From positions 1-10,472 of the forward strand of contig JALVPN010000171.1 of assembly GCA_027031765.1 (NCBI GenBank): a stretch of 10,472 nucleotides of DNA, given 5' to 3'. Source of the DNA: Promethearchaeota archaeon (GTDB lineage: Archaea > Asgardarchaeota > Thorarchaeia > Thorarchaeales > Thorarchaeaceae). The translations under genes were made by a program, and so were the position numbers. Each line of letters starts with the position of its first letter. Positions within the stretch are counted from its first letter, which is position 1. Positions 424-9,712 of this stretch are shown piece by piece. The notes below the pieces were generated by a model, which was not told where the DNA came from, ran no database searches, and saw only the letters and a program-made list of their open reading frames with translations.

Positions 424-2682
424 TCAGGCAGCCGGGAGCGAGACGAGGACCGTCATGTTGGTGAGCTCGAGTTCCTCCGCCTCTTCCAAGACAGTGACCC
501 GGCCCCCGTACAGCGTGGTGAGGCGGCGTGCGACTGCAATGTCAAGGTCCTGGACACGCTCTGCACAGAAGTAGCGCTGGAACAGCTCGCGGAGCTGCTC
601 GGCCTGTGAGACCGTTGTCACGACGGTCAGACGGATGTCGATAGTGTGTGGGGACGTGCGGTCAGCAGGGCCTATTGCGGACAGGTTGATGCCAGTCCCG
701 GGCTCTATGCGCCGGATGACGGCCCTCAGGAGGTGGAAGAACAGGCGCTGGAGGAGTGGCGTCGCACGAGCAAAGTACGTCCCTACAGTACCGTCGACCA
801 TGACAATCGAGCGTATGTCAGGTACGGCAGCCGCGAGGGCACCGATTGCATGGTTGAACATGGCAATGACGTCGAAGTCCTCAAGCTCGTCAGGTGAGAA
901 CCGTTCGGTGCGTACAAGGGTCACCATCATCTGGGTCAGTTCGTCTGCACTGGAGAGGTGCGTCAGCGCTCTCAGCACACGCTCCATGGGCTCTTTTCCA
1001 AGGTCGCCACGGTTGGTAAGCTCGTAGAGCTCGTCTGACGCGGCAGCGTGCTCCCTGCTGATCGTGGTGGCGACCATGGCGGTGGCAGCCGACACGTGGG
1101 ACAGGAACCGCTGCGATGTCATGCTCCGGGTGGAGTAGAACAGCAACAGGAGGAACGGCAACATGAGTGTCGGGACGGCGAGCACCACCTCCGCAGACCA
1201 CCACCCGATTGTCCACGGCACGTAGTTACCCCGCAGTGTCAGTGACACTATCCAGATCATCAGGGAACCGGCGGCGGACATGCCGACGGCCACTTTTTCA
1301 CCCGACTCGATTGCCAGCAGGGTGAGCAGGTATGCGAGTTCAAAGACCGCGACAGTGCCAAGGAACACCAGGAGGGCGTCTCCTATGGGGTGGGTCACGA
1401 TACCGGGGACTGCGACCGTCAGGTAGTCGTAGACGGCCTCGCCGAGGACTACGGCCACGACGACGAAGACGTAACCGTACCACTGCGCATGACCAGAGGT
1501 GGAGGCCGACCTGTCAGCGGGTGGCCGGAGCAGTCTACGAATCGCCACTCCGAGCGCCACGACGGTGACCAGGCCTCCGACGACATATGGGACAATGGCC
1601 TCACCCAGTGGGCCGTAGAACGGGTGAAAGTGCTCCAGGGCCGTCGCAACGTCGAGGACAGACCATGAGAAGAGGGCAAATGCCACGGGGGAATAGGACC
1701 ATGATGTGCGGTCACTCGCCTCGGTCACGAGCAACAGGCCGACCACGGTCGCCATCATCGCTGACGAGAGGTGTATGCTGATGGTGAGGACCGGGTTCAC
1801 CACAGACTGGAGGCCCAAGAGGGCTGCCATGAGGTACGAGCCGATGAAGGGTGCGACCACGAGCAACGGGAACATGAGCACGACCCCATATGCAAAGAGC
1901 GGCCTGATGCCAACAGAGCGTAGCAATGGGTAGCATGTCGCAATAATGACCACCATCAGGGCACCCGCTTCCAGACCCATCGTGAAGACCCAGAGACCGG
2001 CCTCGACCAGTGTTGCAAGGGCGACCATCAGTGAGGAGAGTGCGAACAGGAGGGCTGCTACTGAGAGCCTGAGCGGGTCCGTCAGCTGGTCTGCGTATTG
2101 CTGACGGTAGGCCCCGACTGCTACGAGCACGAACACTACCACACCTGACAGGGCGACCACAGTGGACACCTGACCGGTCCAGTCCGGGAGCAGGCCCGAC
2201 ACGTACAGCCCATAGAAGACCGACAGGACCAATATGCCCGTGCCTGTGGACACGGCTGCTGCGCGCCCGGTCTCAGCAAGACCAAGAGCATCACCCTCGC
2301 GGCCGGCCAGTGACACAGCACCAAGGAAGAGGACGCCGGTCGTGAGGAGGTGCACTGCGTGGACAAAAGTCCCCGGACCCGTTGACCAGAGGCCCGACAG
2401 TCCGACCAAGAAGATGTGGCTCAGTGTCACGACGACGTGCATGAACCAAGTGGTGACAACAGCACCGAACAGCACCCTGTGGTACTGTGACGGGTCCGTC
2501 CTCATGACACTGAACACTGACGCGGAGGCCGCAGCCGACAGGAGCATGAGGACCGTAGTAACGACTACGACCAGCTGGCGGCTCTCAAGGGGAGGAGAAG
2601 TGACGTAGATGAGAGCGCACACAGCAGTCAGCACCAATAGGCCGATGACAATCCGGGCACCCCGGTGCCTGATAACATGCAT
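424..2682 (-). CDS. Polytopic (~16 TM) membrane sensor with a C-terminal degenerate HisKA/HATPase_c-like module (probable pseudo-histidine kinase)
   Basis: 752-aa ORF with about 16 hydrophobic segments in aa 10-517. The C-terminal ~235 aa follow the HK layout: LLQRLFFHLLRAVIRR (N-box position), QLRELFQRYF (F-box), DLDIAVARRLTTLYGGRVTV (G2 box plus GG.I.V), and a terminal VLVSLP strand. Confidence 0.8.
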   Translation of the reverse strand: MHVIRHRGARIVIGLLVLTAVCALIYVTSPPLESRQLVVVVTTVLMLLSAAASASVFSVMRTDPSQYHRVLFGAVVTTWFMHVVVTLSHIFLVGLSGLWSTGPGTFVHAVHLLTTGVLFLGAVSLAGREGDALGLAETGRAAAVSTGTGILVLSVFYGLYVSGLLPDWTGQVSTVVALSGVVVFVLVAVGAYRQQYADQLTDPLRLSVAALLFALSSLMVALATLVEAGLWVFTMGLEAGALMVVIIATCYPLLRSVGIRPLFAYGVVLMFPLLVVAPFIGSYLMAALLGLQSVVNPVLTISIHLSSAMMATVVGLLLVTEASDRTSWSYSPVAFALFSWSVLDVATALEHFHPFYGPLGEAIVPYVVGGLVTVVALGVAIRRLLRPPADRSASTSGHAQWYGYVFVVVAVVLGEAVYDYLTVAVPGIVTHPIGDALLVFLGTVAVFELAYLLTLLAIESGEKVAVGMSAAGSLMIWIVSLTLRGNYVPWTIGWWSAEVVLAVPTLMLPFLLLLFYSTRSMTSQRFLSHVSAATAMVATTISREHAAASDELYELTNRGDLGKEPMERVLRALTHLSSADELTQMMVTLVRTERFSPDELEDFDVIAMFNHAIGALAAAVPDIRSIVMVDGTVGTYFARATPLLQRLFFHLLRAVIRRIEPGTGINLSAIGPADRTSPHTIDIRLTVVTTVSQAEQLRELFQRYFCAERVQDLDIAVARRLTTLYGGRVTVLEEAEELELTNMTVLVSLPAA

Positions 2683-2910: not shown

Positions 2911-4191
2911 GTGGTCACATTGGTAAAGGACTCAAGGATATCGGGGTTCTACAAGCTGACACGTGAAGAGCGGGTCGCCAGACTGCTCGAACTCACAGGC
3001 CTTGACAGGAAGGAGGCCGCGCCCCTCACAGACCCGGGGCAGGTGGACATGTCAGTCCTCGACCACATGATTGAGAATGTGGTAGGTGCCATGACGCTGC
3101 CGCTCGGGATTGCAACGAACTTCCGTATCAATGGCAGGGACTACCTCGTCCCCATGGCGATAGAGGAGCCCTCGGTGGTGGCCGCCGCAAGCAATGCGGC
3201 AAGGATTGCGCGGCCACACGGTGGCTTCACGGCGGTGGACACGGGGCCCCTCATGATTGCGCAGATACAGGCGGTCAATGTCCCGACACCCTTTGCAGCA
3301 AAGCAGCGCGTCCTGGAGGCGAAGGAAGAGATCCTCGCACTGGCAAATGAGCAGGACCCCGTCCTCGTCAGGTTCGGTGGTGGGGCGCGTGACGTACGCG
3401 TGCGGGTCATAGACTCAGCGGTCGGCCCGATGGTCATCACAGAGCTCATCGTGGACACAAGGGACGCCATGGGTGCCAATGCGGTCAACACCATGGCTGA
3501 GGCCCTCGCACCGACAGTCGAGCGGCTGACTGGAGGACGCGTGCTGCTGAGGATACTGTCCAACCTTGCAGACCTCAGGCTGGTACGTGCACGTGCCACC
3601 TTCGATGCGGAGCTCCTCGGCGGTGAGGAGGTGGTCGACGGTATCATTGCCGCATGGGCCTTTGCAGAGGCCGACCCCTACAGGTGCGCCACCCACAACA
3701 AGGGCATCATGAACGGGATTGATGCGGTGGTCATTGCCACTGGGAACGACTTCAGGGCCATCGAGGCCGGGGCACACAGTTATGCGGCTGTCGGTGGCTA
3801 CAGCTCGCTGACAAAGTACGAGAAGGCACCGGACGGCAACCTTGTCGGCTCAATCGAGGTGCCCATGGCTGTGGGGCTGGTGGGCGGTGCCACAAAGGTG
3901 CACCCTGTGGCACGGGCATGCGTGAAGATCCTCGGGGTGAAGACTGCAGCAGAGCTCGCACATGTGATTGCCAGCGTGGGCCTTGCACAGAACCTTGCTG
4001 CCCTGCGTGCGCTCGCGGCAGAGGGAATCCAGAAGGGACACATGGCACTCCATGCACGGAATGTGGCAGCGACCGCAGGCGCACGGGGCGACATGATAGA
4101 CAGGGTCGCCGAGATACTCGTCCGGGAGAAGAAGATAAACGTGGAGCGTGCGAGGGAGGTGCTCGCTGAGCTCCAGGGCGGTGGAGAGTAG
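2911..4191 (+). CDS. mvaA: Hydroxymethylglutaryl-CoA reductase, class II
   Basis: 426 aa with class II motifs ENVVG, PMAIEEPSVVAAAS, DAMGAN, RILSNL, THNKGIMNGIDAV..ATGNDFRAIEA and GIQKGHMALH. Catalytic E/K/D/H positions are present. The start is GTG 2911, or TTG 2920 as an alternative. Confidence 0.96.
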   Translation: MVTLVKDSRISGFYKLTREERVARLLELTGLDRKEAAPLTDPGQVDMSVLDHMIENVVGAMTLPLGIATNFRINGRDYLVPMAIEEPSVVAAASNAARIARPHGGFTAVDTGPLMIAQIQAVNVPTPFAAKQRVLEAKEEILALANEQDPVLVRFGGGARDVRVRVIDSAVGPMVITELIVDTRDAMGANAVNTMAEALAPTVERLTGGRVLLRILSNLADLRLVRARATFDAELLGGEEVVDGIIAAWAFAEADPYRCATHNKGIMNGIDAVVIATGNDFRAIEAGAHSYAAVGGYSSLTKYEKAPDGNLVGSIEVPMAVGLVGGATKVHPVARACVKILGVKTAAELAHVIASVGLAQNLAALRALAAEGIQKGHMALHARNVAATAGARGDMIDRVAEILVREKKINVERAREVLAELQGGGE

Positions 4192-4457
4192 CCCTACTGC
4201 CCCTGTACGTGCCGTGCCCGGACAGCAGGTGCACAACACAGCTGCGGCCCTAGAACACCGACAGAGCTGCGCGGCACCGTGACGGACGGGAGGCCGGGCC
4301 TCTGCCGGCCCCACCGGTAGGAGCAGGTACCCCTGCCATTCGATTTTCGGACCCCCGTCCATCAACACAACATATTTCTGGTGACCGGCATAGTTACGGG
4401 ACGGTCTAATTGCTGACGTGGCACTCCATCCGTCGTCGGTAGCGGAGTCGATAAGAC

Positions 4458-5204
4458 ATGGAAGAGGACTGCACGCAATGGGAACGCCTTGCAGGCGAGT
4501 TTGCGGAGGCTGAGAACTACTACCAGGCTGCACACCAGTACAAACACGCTGCCAGCTGCTATCTTGACAGGGTCATTGAGATGACGAGGAAGGCGGCCGA
4601 GTACTTCCACATGTATGCAGAACAGAACGTGGAGAAGGACGACCACAGGACTGCTGCCACCGCATACTTCGAGGCCGCGACACAGTACCGTCAGGTCGAT
4701 GACATGGGCACGGCGCTGACACTGTACGAGAACGCAGCTGAACAGGCCCTGAAAGAGGACATGATAGAGACCGCCGCGCAGGCCTACCTCTGGGCCGCGT
4801 ACGCCTGCTACAGGCTCGGGAACATGGACTACTTCGTCGAGTGCGCCAAGAACATGGGCGACCTGTACGACAGGGCAGCCGACAGGGCACTGGAGGCAGG
4901 CAATGCCCAGCGCGTGGTGATGGACCTGGCCCTTGCTGCAATGGGGCTTGCCACTACGGACAGGGTGGACGACGCGCTTGAACGGGTCGAGAAGGCAAAA
5001 CGCGTAATCGGTAAGACACGCGGGGACTGGATGGAGACCATGCTTGAGTTCAGTGAGGCCCTGGCGAAGAATGACCTCGACACGGCAGATGACCTGCTCA
5101 GGGAGTTCCGCGAGGAGGAGACCGTACAACAGGTCATGCGGGCATGTCTTGAGATCAGACAGGAGGAGGCCAAGAAACGGCGGCGCGCGGCCGCCAGTCA
5201 GTGA
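4458..5204 (+). CDS. SNAP/Sec17-like (NSF attachment protein fold) TPR-type alpha-solenoid protein
   Basis: 248 aa, all-helical and acidic, with repeated A..Y..AA..Y motifs (AAHQYKHAASCY, AATAYFEAATQY, ALTLYENAAEQA, AAQAYLWAAYAC). No signal peptide or TM segment. Strong GC3 bias supports coding. The SNAP-specific assignment is by eye. Confidence 0.75.
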   Translation: MEEDCTQWERLAGEFAEAENYYQAAHQYKHAASCYLDRVIEMTRKAAEYFHMYAEQNVEKDDHRTAATAYFEAATQYRQVDDMGTALTLYENAAEQALKEDMIETAAQAYLWAAYACYRLGNMDYFVECAKNMGDLYDRAADRALEAGNAQRVVMDLALAAMGLATTDRVDDALERVEKAKRVIGKTRGDWMETMLEFSEALAKNDLDTADDLLREFREEETVQQVMRACLEIRQEEAKKRRRAAASQ

Positions 5205-6445
5205 ACCCTCACAAGGGAGCTCTGTACGACCTCGGGCCCTCCATCAGCTGATGACACCTTCACTGTGACCAGCTGGTCGCCAGCAGCCAACGCCCGCACA
5301 TATAGCTGGAACCTCATGCGTTCGCCGGAGCCGAGGAACTCGACCGTCTTCTTGCTGCTGCCCAGCGTCAGCACCAGACCATCGGAGAGGTCAATGGACA
5401 GCTCCAGACCACTCGCTGGGCCATCACCCTCGTTACCCAGCACGGCGTCTATTACGATCTCGTCGTTGAGACCGCAGCTGATACGCTGGGGCTCCAACGC
5501 AAGCGTGAGCGCTGGGGGGGCATGCTGTACATCGAACTCGATGGTGTTGCTGACCTTGTGTGCAAGTACGTGCGCACCCTCAAGGGTGAGCCTGAACGGG
5601 CCTACCACGGCACTACCACTGAGTACAGGGATCACCTCCAGCAGCCACGAGTCCTCAGCCAGTGGCTCACCTGAGAAGACCGGGCCGCGTGTCAGGGTGA
5701 CGTTGTTGCTCAGCGAGACCCGGTGTGCGGTGACCCTGACAGGCTCAGGACAGCGGTAGCGGAGCTCCAGCTCTAGGGGCACCTTCACACTGACCGCCGA
5801 CGGCTCAGGGCCAGCCCACTCCAGTACGACCTCCGTGCTCAGGGCCAGGTCCACGCACGACACCACAAACTCGACGAGCTGGCGCTCGGCATCAGAGGCC
5901 TTGACTGCTGAGGCCAACCGCTGGATCTTTGACAGAGGGGTCTCCTCCCCGTGACATAGGACGGCCACACACGTCTCTGCGAAGGCATACGGTGCAGTCT
6001 TCTTACCACCGGGTAGGCGCTTGTTGGCCTTGTGGAGCAGGTTCACAGCTGTGTCAAAGCTGCGGGCCGCCAGGTAACAGAGTATCGACAGTGAGATGGC
6101 CCGGCCAGACTGGGACACGCGTCGGGCCCGGAAGAGGTGGTCAGATGCCTCAGAGTACAGGCCACCAGCCTCGTCAAACCGCCGGTCGATGAGCAAGACC
6201 TCCGCAGCGGCTGTCTTCATAGCCGCAGCACGGGTGTGGTCGTCAGCCTGTAGAGCGGTGTACGCTGCCTCACGGAAGTACTTGACGGCAAACTCGACAT
6301 CCTCCACCTCCAGGAACAGGCGTGCCGCCTTCTCGTACTCCACGCTCGCATAGTCGGGGTAGTCATCCTCAATCTCCTTCAGGGCCTTCTCAATATGCCG
6401 CTTCGCCTTCTTCACGGGATCCTTCTTGAACAGTCTTCCGAACAT
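5198..6445 (-). CDS. SNAP-like TPR solenoid (aa ~1-205) fused to two Ig-like beta-sandwich domains (second one DUF11/CARDB-like)
   Basis: 415 aa. The N-half is helical with EYEKAARLF, YFREAAYTA and RRFDEAGGLYSEAS. The C-half has alternating beta-strand patterns, including VLGNEGDGPASGLELSIDLSDGLVL, which resembles the DUF11/CARDB V.N.G..PA..V motif. No signal peptide, so it is likely cytoplasmic. Confidence 0.75.
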   Translation of the reverse strand: MFGRLFKKDPVKKAKRHIEKALKEIEDDYPDYASVEYEKAARLFLEVEDVEFAVKYFREAAYTALQADDHTRAAAMKTAAAEVLLIDRRFDEAGGLYSEASDHLFRARRVSQSGRAISLSILCYLAARSFDTAVNLLHKANKRLPGGKKTAPYAFAETCVAVLCHGEETPLSKIQRLASAVKASDAERQLVEFVVSCVDLALSTEVVLEWAGPEPSAVSVKVPLELELRYRCPEPVRVTAHRVSLSNNVTLTRGPVFSGEPLAEDSWLLEVIPVLSGSAVVGPFRLTLEGAHVLAHKVSNTIEFDVQHAPPALTLALEPQRISCGLNDEIVIDAVLGNEGDGPASGLELSIDLSDGLVLTLGSSKKTVEFLGSGERMRFQLYVRALAAGDQLVTVKVSSADGGPEVVQSSLVRVH

Positions 6446-6450
6446 CGGTC

Positions 6451-6520
6451 GGCCTCACTCGTCTGGACAAGAAGACCCAAAAGCACACCGGCTTTATCGG
6501 TTTCGGCCAGCAGCAGGAGG
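6451..6520. promoter_or_regulatory. 85-bp divergent intergenic region with one central TATA-like element and SD-like motifs for both genes
   Basis: CTTTAT at 6492-6497 (ATAAAG on the minus strand). AGGAGG at 6515-6520 lies 10 nt before ATG 6531. GTGAGG on the minus strand lies ~7 nt before the ATG at 6445. Confidence 0.4.
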
Positions 6521-6530
6521 CACCAGACAC

Positions 6531-7748
6531 ATGGAAGGACTACCGGTCTACTGGTCCGACCCCACCAGGACAGAGTTCGAGGTCACGGTCGAGAGCTGCA
6601 GGGATGCCGGCGACCACTTCGAGGTCACACTCGGTGAGAGCGTCATCAGGCCTGCCGGCGGGGGACAGGCTGGCGACCGTGGCACCCTCGTGGCCGACAG
6701 GGAGGTCAGGGTCCTCGACACCGCAGAACACAACGGCAACGTGGTGCTCATCACTGACGAGCCGGTACAGACCGGGCCCGCGGTGCTCACTATCGATGCT
6801 CAGTGGCGCCGTTCCATGATGAGGAACCACACCGCAGAACACCTCTTCGTCGCGACGCTGGTGCACAAGTACCCGTCCGTCAGACTCGGCTACATCTGGA
6901 TTGACGGCGAACGGGGCACTGTGGAAGTCAGTGGCCACCTCACAGAGGACGACCTCTTTGATGCTGAGCGCAGGGTGCAGGGAGTGATTGCGCGTGGGCT
7001 CCCAGTACAGAGCACGATGGTCGAGGTCTCTGCACTCGACGCGTCAGTGCGTGCCAGAGAGGGGGTACGCTCAAGGAGTGGCAGGGTACGCGTCGTCAGC
7101 ATCGGCGACTATGACCGTTCGGCCTGTTCAGGCACCCACGTACTCAATACGGCAGACATACGCGTCTTCAAGATAGTCGACTACAGGCTCAGTGATACCG
7201 GCGCGCATGTCGAGTTCCTGACAGGTGACAGGGCCGTTGCCAGGTTGTCCCACGTCTTCAATGAGGTGCTGCGGCGCAAGTACACCTATCCCTACGAGCT
7301 CGACCAGATCGGTGCCGTCCTCGACAAGGGCAAGAGGGCCGTCAGTGAGCACACAGCCCTCAGAGAAAAAGTGATGGGGCTCCTGCGCTCCGGGCCCGCC
7401 GTCGAACGCATCGGCAATACCACCTTCATGCACGAGTTCCTGCCCGGTTTCGATGCGAAGGCCATGCGCCTGTGCGCAAAGTCGTTGCGTCTGGGAGCAC
7501 CATCAGCCGTGCTGTTCTTCGCACCCGGCAGGAAACCCACCGTGCTCCTGTGGACGGACGGGCTGCCACACGGGGCCTCACACTATATCAGGGACGCCGT
7601 GGTGCGCCTCGGAGGAAAGGGCGGCGGTAGCCGAGAGGTCTTCACAGGCGGCTTCAGGGAAACCAGCGATGATGTAGCGCTGTTCGAGCAGCTCGTCGAG
7701 AGTGTCAGACACACCCTCAACGCCGACGTCAGGGTCACAGGCACCTGA
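6531..7748 (+). CDS. alaX: Alanyl-tRNA editing protein AlaX with C-terminal helical and DHHA1/C-Ala domain (405 aa)
   Basis: Contains GGGQAGDRG, the Zn-binding HTAEH (HxxxH) and CSGTH (CxxxH) motifs, and C-terminal GGKGGG (DHHA1). Start reassigned to ATG 6531 (MEGLPVYWSDP..TEF, typical AlaX N-terminus, SD upstream). The track's 6426 start would overlap the divergent gene. Confidence 0.9.
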   Translation: MEGLPVYWSDPTRTEFEVTVESCRDAGDHFEVTLGESVIRPAGGGQAGDRGTLVADREVRVLDTAEHNGNVVLITDEPVQTGPAVLTIDAQWRRSMMRNHTAEHLFVATLVHKYPSVRLGYIWIDGERGTVEVSGHLTEDDLFDAERRVQGVIARGLPVQSTMVEVSALDASVRAREGVRSRSGRVRVVSIGDYDRSACSGTHVLNTADIRVFKIVDYRLSDTGAHVEFLTGDRAVARLSHVFNEVLRRKYTYPYELDQIGAVLDKGKRAVSEHTALREKVMGLLRSGPAVERIGNTTFMHEFLPGFDAKAMRLCAKSLRLGAPSAVLFFAPGRKPTVLLWTDGLPHGASHYIRDAVVRLGGKGGGSREVFTGGFRETSDDVALFEQLVESVRHTLNADVRVTGT

Positions 7749-7771
7749 CGGGTCATGTGTCAGTATTCAAG

Positions 7772-7779
7772 AGGTCAGC
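7772..7779 (+). repeat. Left copy of 8-bp direct repeat AGGTCAGC
   Basis: Identical to 9909-9916. Both copies sit at the GC transitions. The match is short, so chance is not excluded. Confidence 0.35.
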
Positions 7780-8060
7780 ATGGGTGCATTCATCTCGCGC
7801 ACCATCTTCTTGCCCGATGAAACAGTGGGATACGAACAGACTTGCAAGAGCGTTTTCCGAACACAGTGTTCCGCCATCTTGCCCAGATGAGTGCGGTTTC
7901 GAAGCCGTCAGAAGACAGGGATTCGAGTCCTTCCGGTCGGGACATGGCCATGGAGATAAAGGGGTCTGCTTGTGGAGCGGTGTTGCTCTCACAATACACA
8001 GAACCAATACAGCCTCCATCCTTCCAGAACCAGAACCACGGAAGACCGAAGAAACTCCTC

Positions 8061-8080
8061 GTAGGCCTGCGAAGGCCTGC
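8061..8080 (+). other. GNRA-capped hairpin GTAGGCCT-GCGA-AGGCCTGC
   Basis: 8-bp stem (one G-U pair) with a GCGA tetraloop on the + strand. Confidence 0.45.
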
Positions 8081-8320
8081 CGTCTAGCCGAACATCGTCG
8101 AGTACCACAGCAGACACCTATGAGAAATCGCGGATGGTATGAAATGTACTTGTGTATGAACAGACGTCCACCATCATGGAACAGGTGTTTCCGTGGTATA
8201 GTCATCACTGGACGACGACGGTCGTCGGTAGTGACAGGCCAGAGGGCATATCAAGATTGCACTCCCCGGGGCTTGTTCTGGAGGAGGACGTAGTGCAGTG
8301 CTTGTTGGGGCCTAGACCCA

Positions 8321-8346
8321 CAGCTGAGAGCAGGTTCTCACAGCTG
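8321..8346. other. Hairpin CAGCTG-A-GAG-caggtt-CTC-A-CAGCTG
   Basis: 9 bp with a single A/A mismatch and a 6-nt loop. Confidence 0.4.
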
Positions 8347-8382
8347 GTTGATTGCGTAGTCCGAACCACTCCGGTCTGTTGT

Positions 8383-8418
8383 CCGATGTCGCCTTCGTCA
8401 CCATGGTCAGGACATCGG
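8383..8418. other. Perfect 8-bp inverted repeat CCGATGTC/GACATCGG with a 20-nt spacer
   Basis: Read directly from the sequence. The spacer contains the palindrome ACCATGGT. Confidence 0.4.
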
Positions 8419-8505
8419 TCTGGGCCGAGAATGCAGTCAAGTTTCGGCAAGATGCCCGAGGTACGACTCTTCCGTCAAACTTGCGGCAAGTAGTCAGCAG
8501 GCTGC

Positions 8506-8568
8506 AGAAAGAAGAAATAAATAGTAGGAAGAGAGCATCCACAGCAGGGAGAAATGGGATATAGGTGG
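8506..8568 (+). promoter_or_regulatory. Putative BRE + TATA promoter and SD for the 8576 ORF
   Basis: Purine-rich AGAAAGAAGAA (8506-8516) directly precedes ATAAATA (8517-8523). AGGTGG at 8563-8568 lies 7 nt before the ATG. Confidence 0.5.
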
Positions 8569-8575
8569 AAGTGGA

Positions 8576-9712
8576 ATGTGGAAGAGTAACAAAGCTGTTG
8601 CGGCAGTGGGCCTCGTACTCTTGCTAGTGGGCGCAAGTCTGCTACCGTACTTGTATGCGTACTACCCACCGCTGAGCTGGTTGGGTCTCGCAGGTATTGT
8701 TCTAGTTATCATTGGACTAGTCCTCGAAATCAAAGCAATACGTTCATGGACTTCTGGAAGACGTGGGAGCGTTGGAGAAAGCCTTAGAGGAATCTTACAG
8801 CTCGGCGAGACCGGGGAGCCGGATCTGAGCATGCGTCAGACAATGATGAGAAGCCCATTCTTTCACGAGTTCACGTTCACGGAGGTGGGGTTCAGGCTCG
8901 TCCAGCGACTCCACAGAGAGCTGGCGTTCCTGCTGCAGGATGCAGGCATCAGCATTGGTACTTCAACGTGTAGAGTGTTCAACACGAACTACGGAACGCT
9001 GTACTACGGCTACCTAGAGGGGGTTCCGGACATCGCCCTCCAGAAGAGGCGATTGTCGCTCCTCGTCAGTGCACTCAGAGCAATCTTTGGCATCGTAGGA
9101 GCCATCATGATTTTGTATGGCACGCTTGTCTTGCGCTACTCCTACTACCTCTATGATGTCCAATCCGGATTGATACTGCTTACTATAGGTCTCGTTCTCA
9201 CAGCCATTGCAGTCAAGCTCAAGCCCAAGAAACTGCTCCTACCGCCCTACTTCGGTCGATACAGATTGATGTACACCGGCTCCATCGAACCACCAATCAT
9301 CACGGAGAGCACGGAAACTCAAGGCCTGGTAGCAGCATTACCAGGAGTCACAAGAAAGACGGCAGTGTACGAGTCGCCACAGGACATGGTACTGTATGTC
9401 GCCCACTCATTTGAACCGAGCGAGGAAGCTCTAGCACATCCTGAAGTTGCAGAGCGTACTAGGTTCTTTGACTACATCACGGAAAGAATACGGACGCAGC
9501 TGAACGCACGGCCACAGGAAACGCCGCCTGCAACAAAGCTCCATGAGGAAACAACACTAGCCATACAGGCCTTTGTAAAGAAGTATGTCGAACCAAACGA
9601 CAAACGGGCGGATGTCGTAAGCGAGGTTGTGCAACGATGGCCTCTACACGAGGGACGCTACACGCAGAGAGCATCATTCCACAACCCATCTGACGAGGGA
9701 ACATTTAACTGA
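8576..9712 (+). CDS. Hypothetical membrane protein with 4 TM helices in two hairpins, each followed by a soluble domain
   Basis: 378-aa ORF with hydrophobic segments at about aa 8-28, 33-51, 162-186 and 195-213. It has a promoter and SD upstream. Codon usage is more AT-rich than the flanking genes. No family recognised. Confidence 0.8.
   Translation: MWKSNKAVAAVGLVLLLVGASLLPYLYAYYPPLSWLGLAGIVLVIIGLVLEIKAIRSWTSGRRGSVGESLRGILQLGETGEPDLSMRQTMMRSPFFHEFTFTEVGFRLVQRLHRELAFLLQDAGISIGTSTCRVFNTNYGTLYYGYLEGVPDIALQKRRLSLLVSALRAIFGIVGAIMILYGTLVLRYSYYLYDVQSGLILLTIGLVLTAIAVKLKPKKLLLPPYFGRYRLMYTGSIEPPIITESTETQGLVAALPGVTRKTAVYESPQDMVLYVAHSFEPSEEALAHPEVAERTRFFDYITERIRTQLNARPQETPPATKLHEETTLAIQAFVKKYVEPNDKRADVVSEVVQRWPLHEGRYTQRASFHNPSDEGTFN

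Follow-up and report, generated by a model that had tools for sequence, protein, structure and literature searches.

The stretch analysed here (hereafter, the window) comprises the 10,472 nucleotides of contig JALVPN010000171.1, assembly GCA_027031765.1, from an archaeon of the family Thorarchaeaceae; it corresponds to contig C171 of a host genome of 2.95 Mb that is 95% complete. Its gene P0001 (4458–5204, forward strand) encodes a protein of 248 amino acids resembling the SNAP (Sec17) proteins of eukaryotes, which we regard as a clade-specific variant of the SNAP/TPR solenoid, probably a scaffold and not a proto-SNAP. The protein is predicted to form 12 helices, has an isoelectric point of 4.7, and shows neither a signal peptide nor a transmembrane segment. 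The 248 codons are free of stops, the ATG at 4458 is the first start codon past an in-frame stop, and a GGAG sequence lies about 11 nucleotides ahead of it. As all 27 aligned homologues share the start MEDEC.QWER and a stop lies in frame upstream, there is no concealed N-terminal extension, and nothing precedes helix 1. The strings quoted by the first-pass annotation, a model's reading of the letters without database searches, were located in this translation (RKAAEYFHMYAEQ...AYLWAA at residues 44–114, MLEFSEALAKNDLDTADDLLREF at residues 195–217, and the tail KKRRRAAASQ). That the open reading frame (ORF) is a genuine gene and not a product of chance follows from its 134 homologues at 60–78% identity and from its AlphaFold2 model, which reaches a mean predicted local distance difference test (pLDDT) value of 95.6. 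A 255-amino-acid ORF on the opposite strand (4362–5129) was discarded as a shadow of high GC content, which is 61% in the window. Upstream, a non-coding spacer of 266 bp (4192–4457), which would hold the promoter, makes the gene monocistronic, and at its end the ORF overlaps by 7 nucleotides a convergent gene of 415 codons (5198–6445). No RNA run is listed with the stretch; the sole run containing it is hydrothermal-vent metagenome DNA, probably its source.

The homologues, of 240 to 277 amino acids, belong almost always to Thorarchaeota when they are named. A search with a profile of the family revealed one copy in 78 of the 85 genomes of the same GTDB family and one copy (E 1e-61) in the single genome of the sister family. 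No real match was obtained in 315 genomes of 30 other Asgard families, three of which gave chance-level matches near 5e-6. The family (hereafter, the Thor family) is single-copy and confined to one Asgard order, the Thorarchaeota. In the alignment of 28 members, helix 1 opens with the signature C-x-Q-W-E-R (residues 5–10, positions 4470–4487), in which C5, Q7, W8, E9, and R10 are invariant. Along with these and E14 on helix 1, the invariant polar residues lie on helix 3 (E48, H51, E55), on helix 5 (E91), and at the start of helix 6 (E104), a clustering that fits one conserved, mainly acidic face. Four cysteines (C5, C34, C117, and C230) and H51 are invariant in the 28 members as well, and C117 aligns with an invariant Cys of SNAPs. 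Close to the end of the protein lies the polybasic stretch KKRRR (residues 239–243, positions 5172–5186), with five to eight Lys or Arg among the last 15 residues in 26 of the 28 sequences. The tail, Arg-rich and then Ala-Ala, was also considered as a VCP-interacting motif, a reading that was rejected, since the homologues keep the basic cluster and not the Ala run.

Among Pfam families, only SNAP (PF14938) passed its cut-off on the 248-amino-acid protein, with 29.2 bits (cut-off 25, E 8e-7) over residues 15–147 (positions 4500–4898), corresponding to positions 24–155 of the 282 of the profile. The generic models TPR_16 (14.6 bits) and TPR_12 (11.2 bits) stayed below theirs; no canonical TPR model (TPR_1/2/12/16, clan CL0020) reached its cut-off, and no 34-residue TPR motifs were detected with Pfam. 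Of 14 prokaryote genomes used as controls, 10 also have PF14938 matches, and the host genome has them at 14 places. A profile built from the 28 family members was then compared with all PDB sequences, where alpha-SNAP (E 2.4e-4) was the only natural protein matched, behind one designed repeat protein. The same search with the single sequence (phmmer) retrieved designed repeat proteins only and no SNAP, so that the family profile is needed to reach it. Against 1.84 billion representative proteins, the family profile gave 26 matches at E ≤ 1e-3, among them 5 members of the family, 6 long archaeal repeat arrays, about 11 full-length SNAPs (170–354 bits on PF14938, one of them a chytrid SNAP by name), and 2 generic TPR_10/12 proteins. 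The best SNAP match (E 7e-9) is eukaryotic, as its contig has split, intron-like genes.

In a profile–profile comparison (hhalign) with a SNAP profile made of ten full-length SNAPs from the profile search, the family reached 97.2% probability, E 4.5e-11, and a score of 80. The controls scored 35.6 for the reversed SNAP profile, at most 18 for ten column-shuffled profiles, and 36–38 for generic TPR_10/12 proteins. Judged by these profile scores, the resemblance of the Thor family to SNAP is above chance. The core of the match covers residues 8–120 (positions 4479–4817) on SNAP 95–206, and the best alignment pairs the Thor-invariant residues E91, Y110, and C117 with E177, Y196, and C203, which are invariant in SNAP. 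With lower confidence, a segment of the C-terminal bundle with the pattern K-T-R..W..L..F..A..D..F (residues 185–231, positions 5010–5150) was aligned to the SNAP pattern T-R-E..LL..A..D..F..AV. In addition, the nearest neighbour found by a language-model search, after the cluster of the protein itself, was the gamma-SNAP cluster (0.94). These data bear on the explanation that the protein is a generic TPR-like chaperone or adaptor, for example an acidic NASP-like chaperone for basic proteins such as histones or ribosomal proteins, whose likeness to SNAP would come from hairpins rich in Ala and Tyr. SNAP past its cut-off with no canonical TPR model at its own, the 2 generic proteins against about 11 SNAPs at E 1e-3, and the coincidence of the SNAP-invariant E, Y, and C with Thor-invariant positions all argue against it.

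The predicted structure points in the same direction. The AlphaFold2 model (predicted template modelling score, pTM, 0.90) comprises 12 helices, its repeat period being about 40 residues, and Foldseek placed Sec17, alpha-SNAP, and gamma-SNAP at the top of its PDB ranking (E 4e-5, template modelling score, TM, up to 0.59), with consensus TPR, LGN, and HAP40 close behind. Both the twisted sheet of helical hairpins and the globular helical bundle at the C-terminus that characterize the SNAP fold are present in the model. SNAP/Sec17 proteins (PF14938; PDB 1QQE, 2IFU, 3J96, and 9NLW) have 14 helices, including a hairpin with a membrane loop, whereas the Thor protein has 12 and lacks the first hairpin. 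The model reads as Sec17 minus that hairpin, C-terminal bundle included, its 12 helices matching Sec17 helices 3–14 and its start falling at the equivalent of Sec17 residue ~50 in the structural alignment. TPR domains of the LGN/Pins and NASP type differ from it in having canonical 34-residue motifs that Pfam recognizes and in lacking a SNAP-like C-terminal bundle. A repeat period of about 40 and not 34 residues, together with a C-terminal bundle collinear with that of Sec17, makes the generic TPR explanation fairly unlikely. The first-pass annotation had proposed a stand-alone SNAP-like protein in an archaeon, with likeness across both SNAP subdomains, and this part of it holds: SNAP is the best match among Pfam families, PDB sequences, and PDB folds, ahead of generic TPR, and both the sheet and the bundle are covered.

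The position of the family relative to SNAP is not defined by a single alignment. A first hhalign alignment places Thor residues 6–231 on SNAP 93–272 (96.8%) with one extra Thor repeat, and a second one places residues 10–232 on SNAP 17–245 (93.4%). The structural alignment favours a third register, residues 8–246 on Sec17 53–292. The register proposed by eye (Thor RKAAEYF against alpha-SNAP AAGNAF) was reproduced within one residue by the second alignment, and the C-terminal parallel by the first, with Thor 185–231 on SNAP 227–272. As a tree with alpha, beta, and gamma SNAPs would not be meaningful at 12–18% identity and with an ambiguous repeat register, the relation was judged by a matrix of profile–profile scores. 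This gave 80.3 for Thor–SNAP, 72.1 for Thor with long TPR_12/SNAP-type arrays of Altiarchaeota, and 149.3 for SNAP with the same arrays, showing that SNAPs are far more like these arrays than like the Thor protein. By hhalign, the N-terminal region of the arrays reached 96% against the Thor family and 99.3% (E 5e-20) against eukaryotic SNAPs.

These arrays, from another archaeal phylum, are the best matches of the family profile outside the family (E 3e-14) and share the hairpin type of the Thor protein. They measure 750–1760 amino acids, carry BatD/NPCBM-type immunoglobulin (Ig)-like and DUF7504/KaiC-like domains, and, unlike the Thor protein, also match TPR_12 at about 100 bits. Judged from these scores, the similarity between the Thor family and SNAP is not exclusive, and the family is about as close to these arrays as it is to SNAPs. 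Equal or better scores against generic TPR or other solenoid families had been named beforehand as the outcome that would count against a SNAP relationship; the Altiarchaeota arrays largely approach it (72 against 80), but SNAP keeps ahead of generic TPR.

No full-length SNAP was found in 400 Asgard genomes, where the best PF14938 match, of 58 bits, was partial and the matches lay mostly in ORFs of 750–1400 amino acids. Three other loci of the host genome were considered as better SNAPs and rejected, those on contigs C31 and C11 being plain TPR_12 proteins (85–113 bits on TPR_12, well above SNAP) and the PF14938 match on C41 being a 646-amino-acid array. The two plain TPR_12 proteins still reached 91–96% hhalign probability against SNAP. 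On contig C31 (L002, 1309–3324, reverse strand), a Ras/Arf-like GTPase of 237 amino acids lies upstream, on the same strand, of a TPR_12 protein of about 273 amino acids; the latter ends in a strongly acidic tail (...DFEFIEP) and, as a single sequence, covers SNAP profile positions 4–245 with 96% hhalign probability.

In SNAP, the acidic tail with its penultimate Leu engages and stimulates NSF, and the basic concave face binds the acidic SNARE bundle. Both the structural alignment and the starts of the homologues show that the N-terminal hairpin with the hydrophobic loop for membrane insertion is absent from the Thor protein. The acidic C-terminus with penultimate Leu is also absent, its place being taken by the polybasic tail, of opposite charge; about 7 of the 10 eukaryotic SNAPs compared have an acidic C-terminal stretch and a penultimate L, F, or I. 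That the protein lacks the N-terminal loop and the penultimate Leu and ends in KKRRRAAASQ had already been noted in the first pass and is confirmed here. Helices 1, 3, 5, and 6 carry invariant polar residues that are mostly Glu, which hints at a charge opposite to that of the basic concave face of SNAP. As for partners, no SNARE domain above cut-off was found in the host genome (best 14.8 bits, E 0.089), nor was NSF identified in it; two Cdc48-type genes with CDC48_N domains are present, neither of them linked to the 248-amino-acid gene.

The inference that had accompanied the first description, a proto-SNAP adaptor coupling helical bundles to a Cdc48/NSF-like ATPase, is not supported by these results. 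In such a model, the sheet would lie along a helical bundle and recruit a Cdc48-type double-ring AAA+ ATPase for its disassembly, as SNAP does for NSF and SNAREs. SNAP being the best sequence and fold match over sheet and bundle alike, and the two Cdc48 homologues, are in its favour. Nevertheless, both coupling elements of SNAP are missing and the tail charge is opposite, the host genome offers neither a SNARE domain nor linkage to Cdc48, and the similarity is shared with other solenoids. Moreover, the family is absent from every other Asgard family sampled, which presumably include the Heimdall lineages carrying SNARE-like genes. We consider this model unlikely. More generally, the protein cannot be called a SNAP orthologue, because its register is not unique, its similarity is not exclusive, the functional elements and the partners are missing, and no full-length Asgard SNAP exists among the genomes searched.

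We favour, with a probability of roughly 0.6, the interpretation that the 248-amino-acid protein is a soluble, acidic, all-alpha protein that has diverged within the SNAP/TPR_12 branch of the TPR clan and acts as a passive scaffold or adaptor with a contact through its polybasic tail, and not as a SNARE–NSF adaptor. In its predicted fold, helical hairpins of about 40 residues build a twisted sheet of the SNAP type, capped by the C-terminal helical bundle. A partner would most likely be held on the conserved face, to which helix 1 contributes its invariant CxQWER and helices 1, 3, 5, and 6 their invariant residues, most of them acidic; the conserved polybasic tail would add another contact, electrostatic in nature, to nucleic acid, to an acidic lipid surface, or to an acidic patch of a protein. 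The data establish the gene, its conservation and distribution, its fold, and the statistical likeness to SNAP, and from them the scaffold role, the binding face, and the role of the tail are inferred. A parallel is offered by the huntingtin-associated protein 40 (HAP40), which is animal-specific and has no detected sequence similarity to the Thor protein; by analogy, it shows that a fold of this kind can serve partners besides SNAREs.

Several points weigh against this scaffold interpretation. The TM values to SNAPs are just 0.55–0.59, with a root-mean-square deviation above 4 Å, and the ESM Atlas, searched by shape alone, yielded clusters of generic bacterial TPR proteins (TM ≤ 0.54) and none of SNAP. 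The register to SNAP is ambiguous, with at least three registers scoring. The proposed face was deduced from the helices that bear the invariant polar residues and not from coordinates. No partner emerged from the analysis, and a monocistronic gene provides no operon partner. Finally, the scaffold interpretation offers no explanation for the metal or redox role at which the invariant C5, C34, C117, C230, and H51 may hint.

The convergent gene P0004 (5198–6445, reverse strand) encodes a protein of 415 amino acids without signal peptide; its model (pLDDT 90.9) shows a solenoid of 10 helices and, behind it, two Ig-like beta-sandwiches. In joining a solenoid to Ig-like domains, the protein resembles the Altiarchaeota arrays. 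Its first 165 residues are weakly SNAP-like (23.8 bits on PF14938, E 0.008 to gamma-SNAP 2IFU, 75% by hhalign against SNAPs), and its relation to the 248-amino-acid family is marginal (33%). Among PDB folds, chain A of 7U06, a large TRAPPII subunit, matches best (E 2.7e-10, TM just 0.26), followed by beta-barrels of transglutaminases and Ig-like ciliary proteins, and the order of the P0004 domains resembles that of TRAPPC8/9/10-type subunits. The P0004 family is order-specific, being present in 83 of the 87 genomes of the order, and it lies tail to tail with the 248-amino-acid gene, with gaps of about 8–56 bp, in every genus of the GTDB family except one.

A two-protein module of Thorarchaeota, with TRAPPII/III-like architecture and a role in a trafficking-like or tethering process, was also considered. 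The shared narrow distribution, the tail-to-tail arrangement in nearly all genomes of the family, the SNAP-like start of P0004, and the E value of its TRAPPII match are in line with such a module. Against it, convergent genes are not co-transcribed, the TRAPPII match has a low TM, and the whole block from the HMG-CoA reductase gene to the AlaX-like gene is syntenic, the order HMG-CoA reductase, 248-amino-acid gene, convergent neighbour (416 amino acids there), and AlaX-like gene being kept in other Thor genomes. In addition, the two genes are 6.7 kb apart in the sister family, each still beside its other neighbour, so the two genes may be adjacent because their order was inherited, without any functional link. 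A complex prediction for the two proteins scored 0.00, below the mark and with no controls run, and speaks neither for nor against binding. On balance, a joint module seems improbable. Least probable of all is the proposal that the SNAP fold is, as a stand-alone adaptor, older than SNAREs and NSF, and that the Thor protein, as a surviving archaeal adaptor of this type and perhaps with P0004, brings either a Cdc48-type ATPase or a small-GTPase/TRAPP-like module to a helical assembly associated with a membrane, the polybasic tail replacing the hydrophobic loop as anchor.

In the sister-family genome (L017, 7371–7736 and 15970–16720), the Ig-fused paralogue, of 417 amino acids, has moved beside AlaX, and a gene of 121 amino acids with a weak Pfam match to KxDL (a BORC/BLOC-1 subunit) lies between the HMG-CoA reductase gene and the SNAP-like gene, here of 239 amino acids.

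Regarding the rest of the window, the gene directly upstream of the SNAP-like gene (2911–4191, forward strand) encodes a class II HMG-CoA reductase (NAD-type, 'degradative' TIGR00532, 490 bits), a position that is syntenic across Thorarchaeota. Beyond P0004, positions 6426–7748 (forward strand) encode an AlaX-type alanyl-tRNA editing protein (tRNA_SAD; AlaXM, 101 bits), whose start is listed as the TTG at 6426, in overlap with the beginning of the divergent 415-amino-acid gene; translation probably begins at the Met of MEGLPVYW, about 105 nucleotides downstream of that TTG. Positions 424–2682 (reverse strand) encode a polytopic membrane protein of 752 amino acids, about 230 of which make up a soluble domain at the C-terminus; it has no Pfam or NCBIfam match at E < 0.1. 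Between 7500 and 10,000, the GC content drops from about 0.61 to 0.52–0.53; this segment, which includes an ORF-poor region of about 800 bp (7749–8575) and a membrane protein of 378 amino acids without assigned family (8576–9712), may be foreign or inserted DNA.

Precursors of the trafficking machinery of eukaryotes are being sought in Asgard archaea, and SNARE-like proteins are known from Heimdall lineages; to our knowledge, no Asgard disassembly adaptor has been reported. In the papers covered by a full-text search, no SNAP-like protein of Asgard archaea is described, and the main text of two structure-based surveys of Asgard proteins from 2026 does not mention SNAP, NSF, or Sec17. Judged by the controls, the Thor family should be taken neither for a SNAP orthologue nor for a sign of fusion machinery of the SNARE/NSF type in Thorarchaeota. 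What our analysis brings is the existence of a compact, stand-alone, SNAP-shaped protein that is strongly conserved in one Asgard order and that, being small, soluble, and confidently modelled, is a tractable target for finding the ligands of archaeal SNAP-type solenoids.
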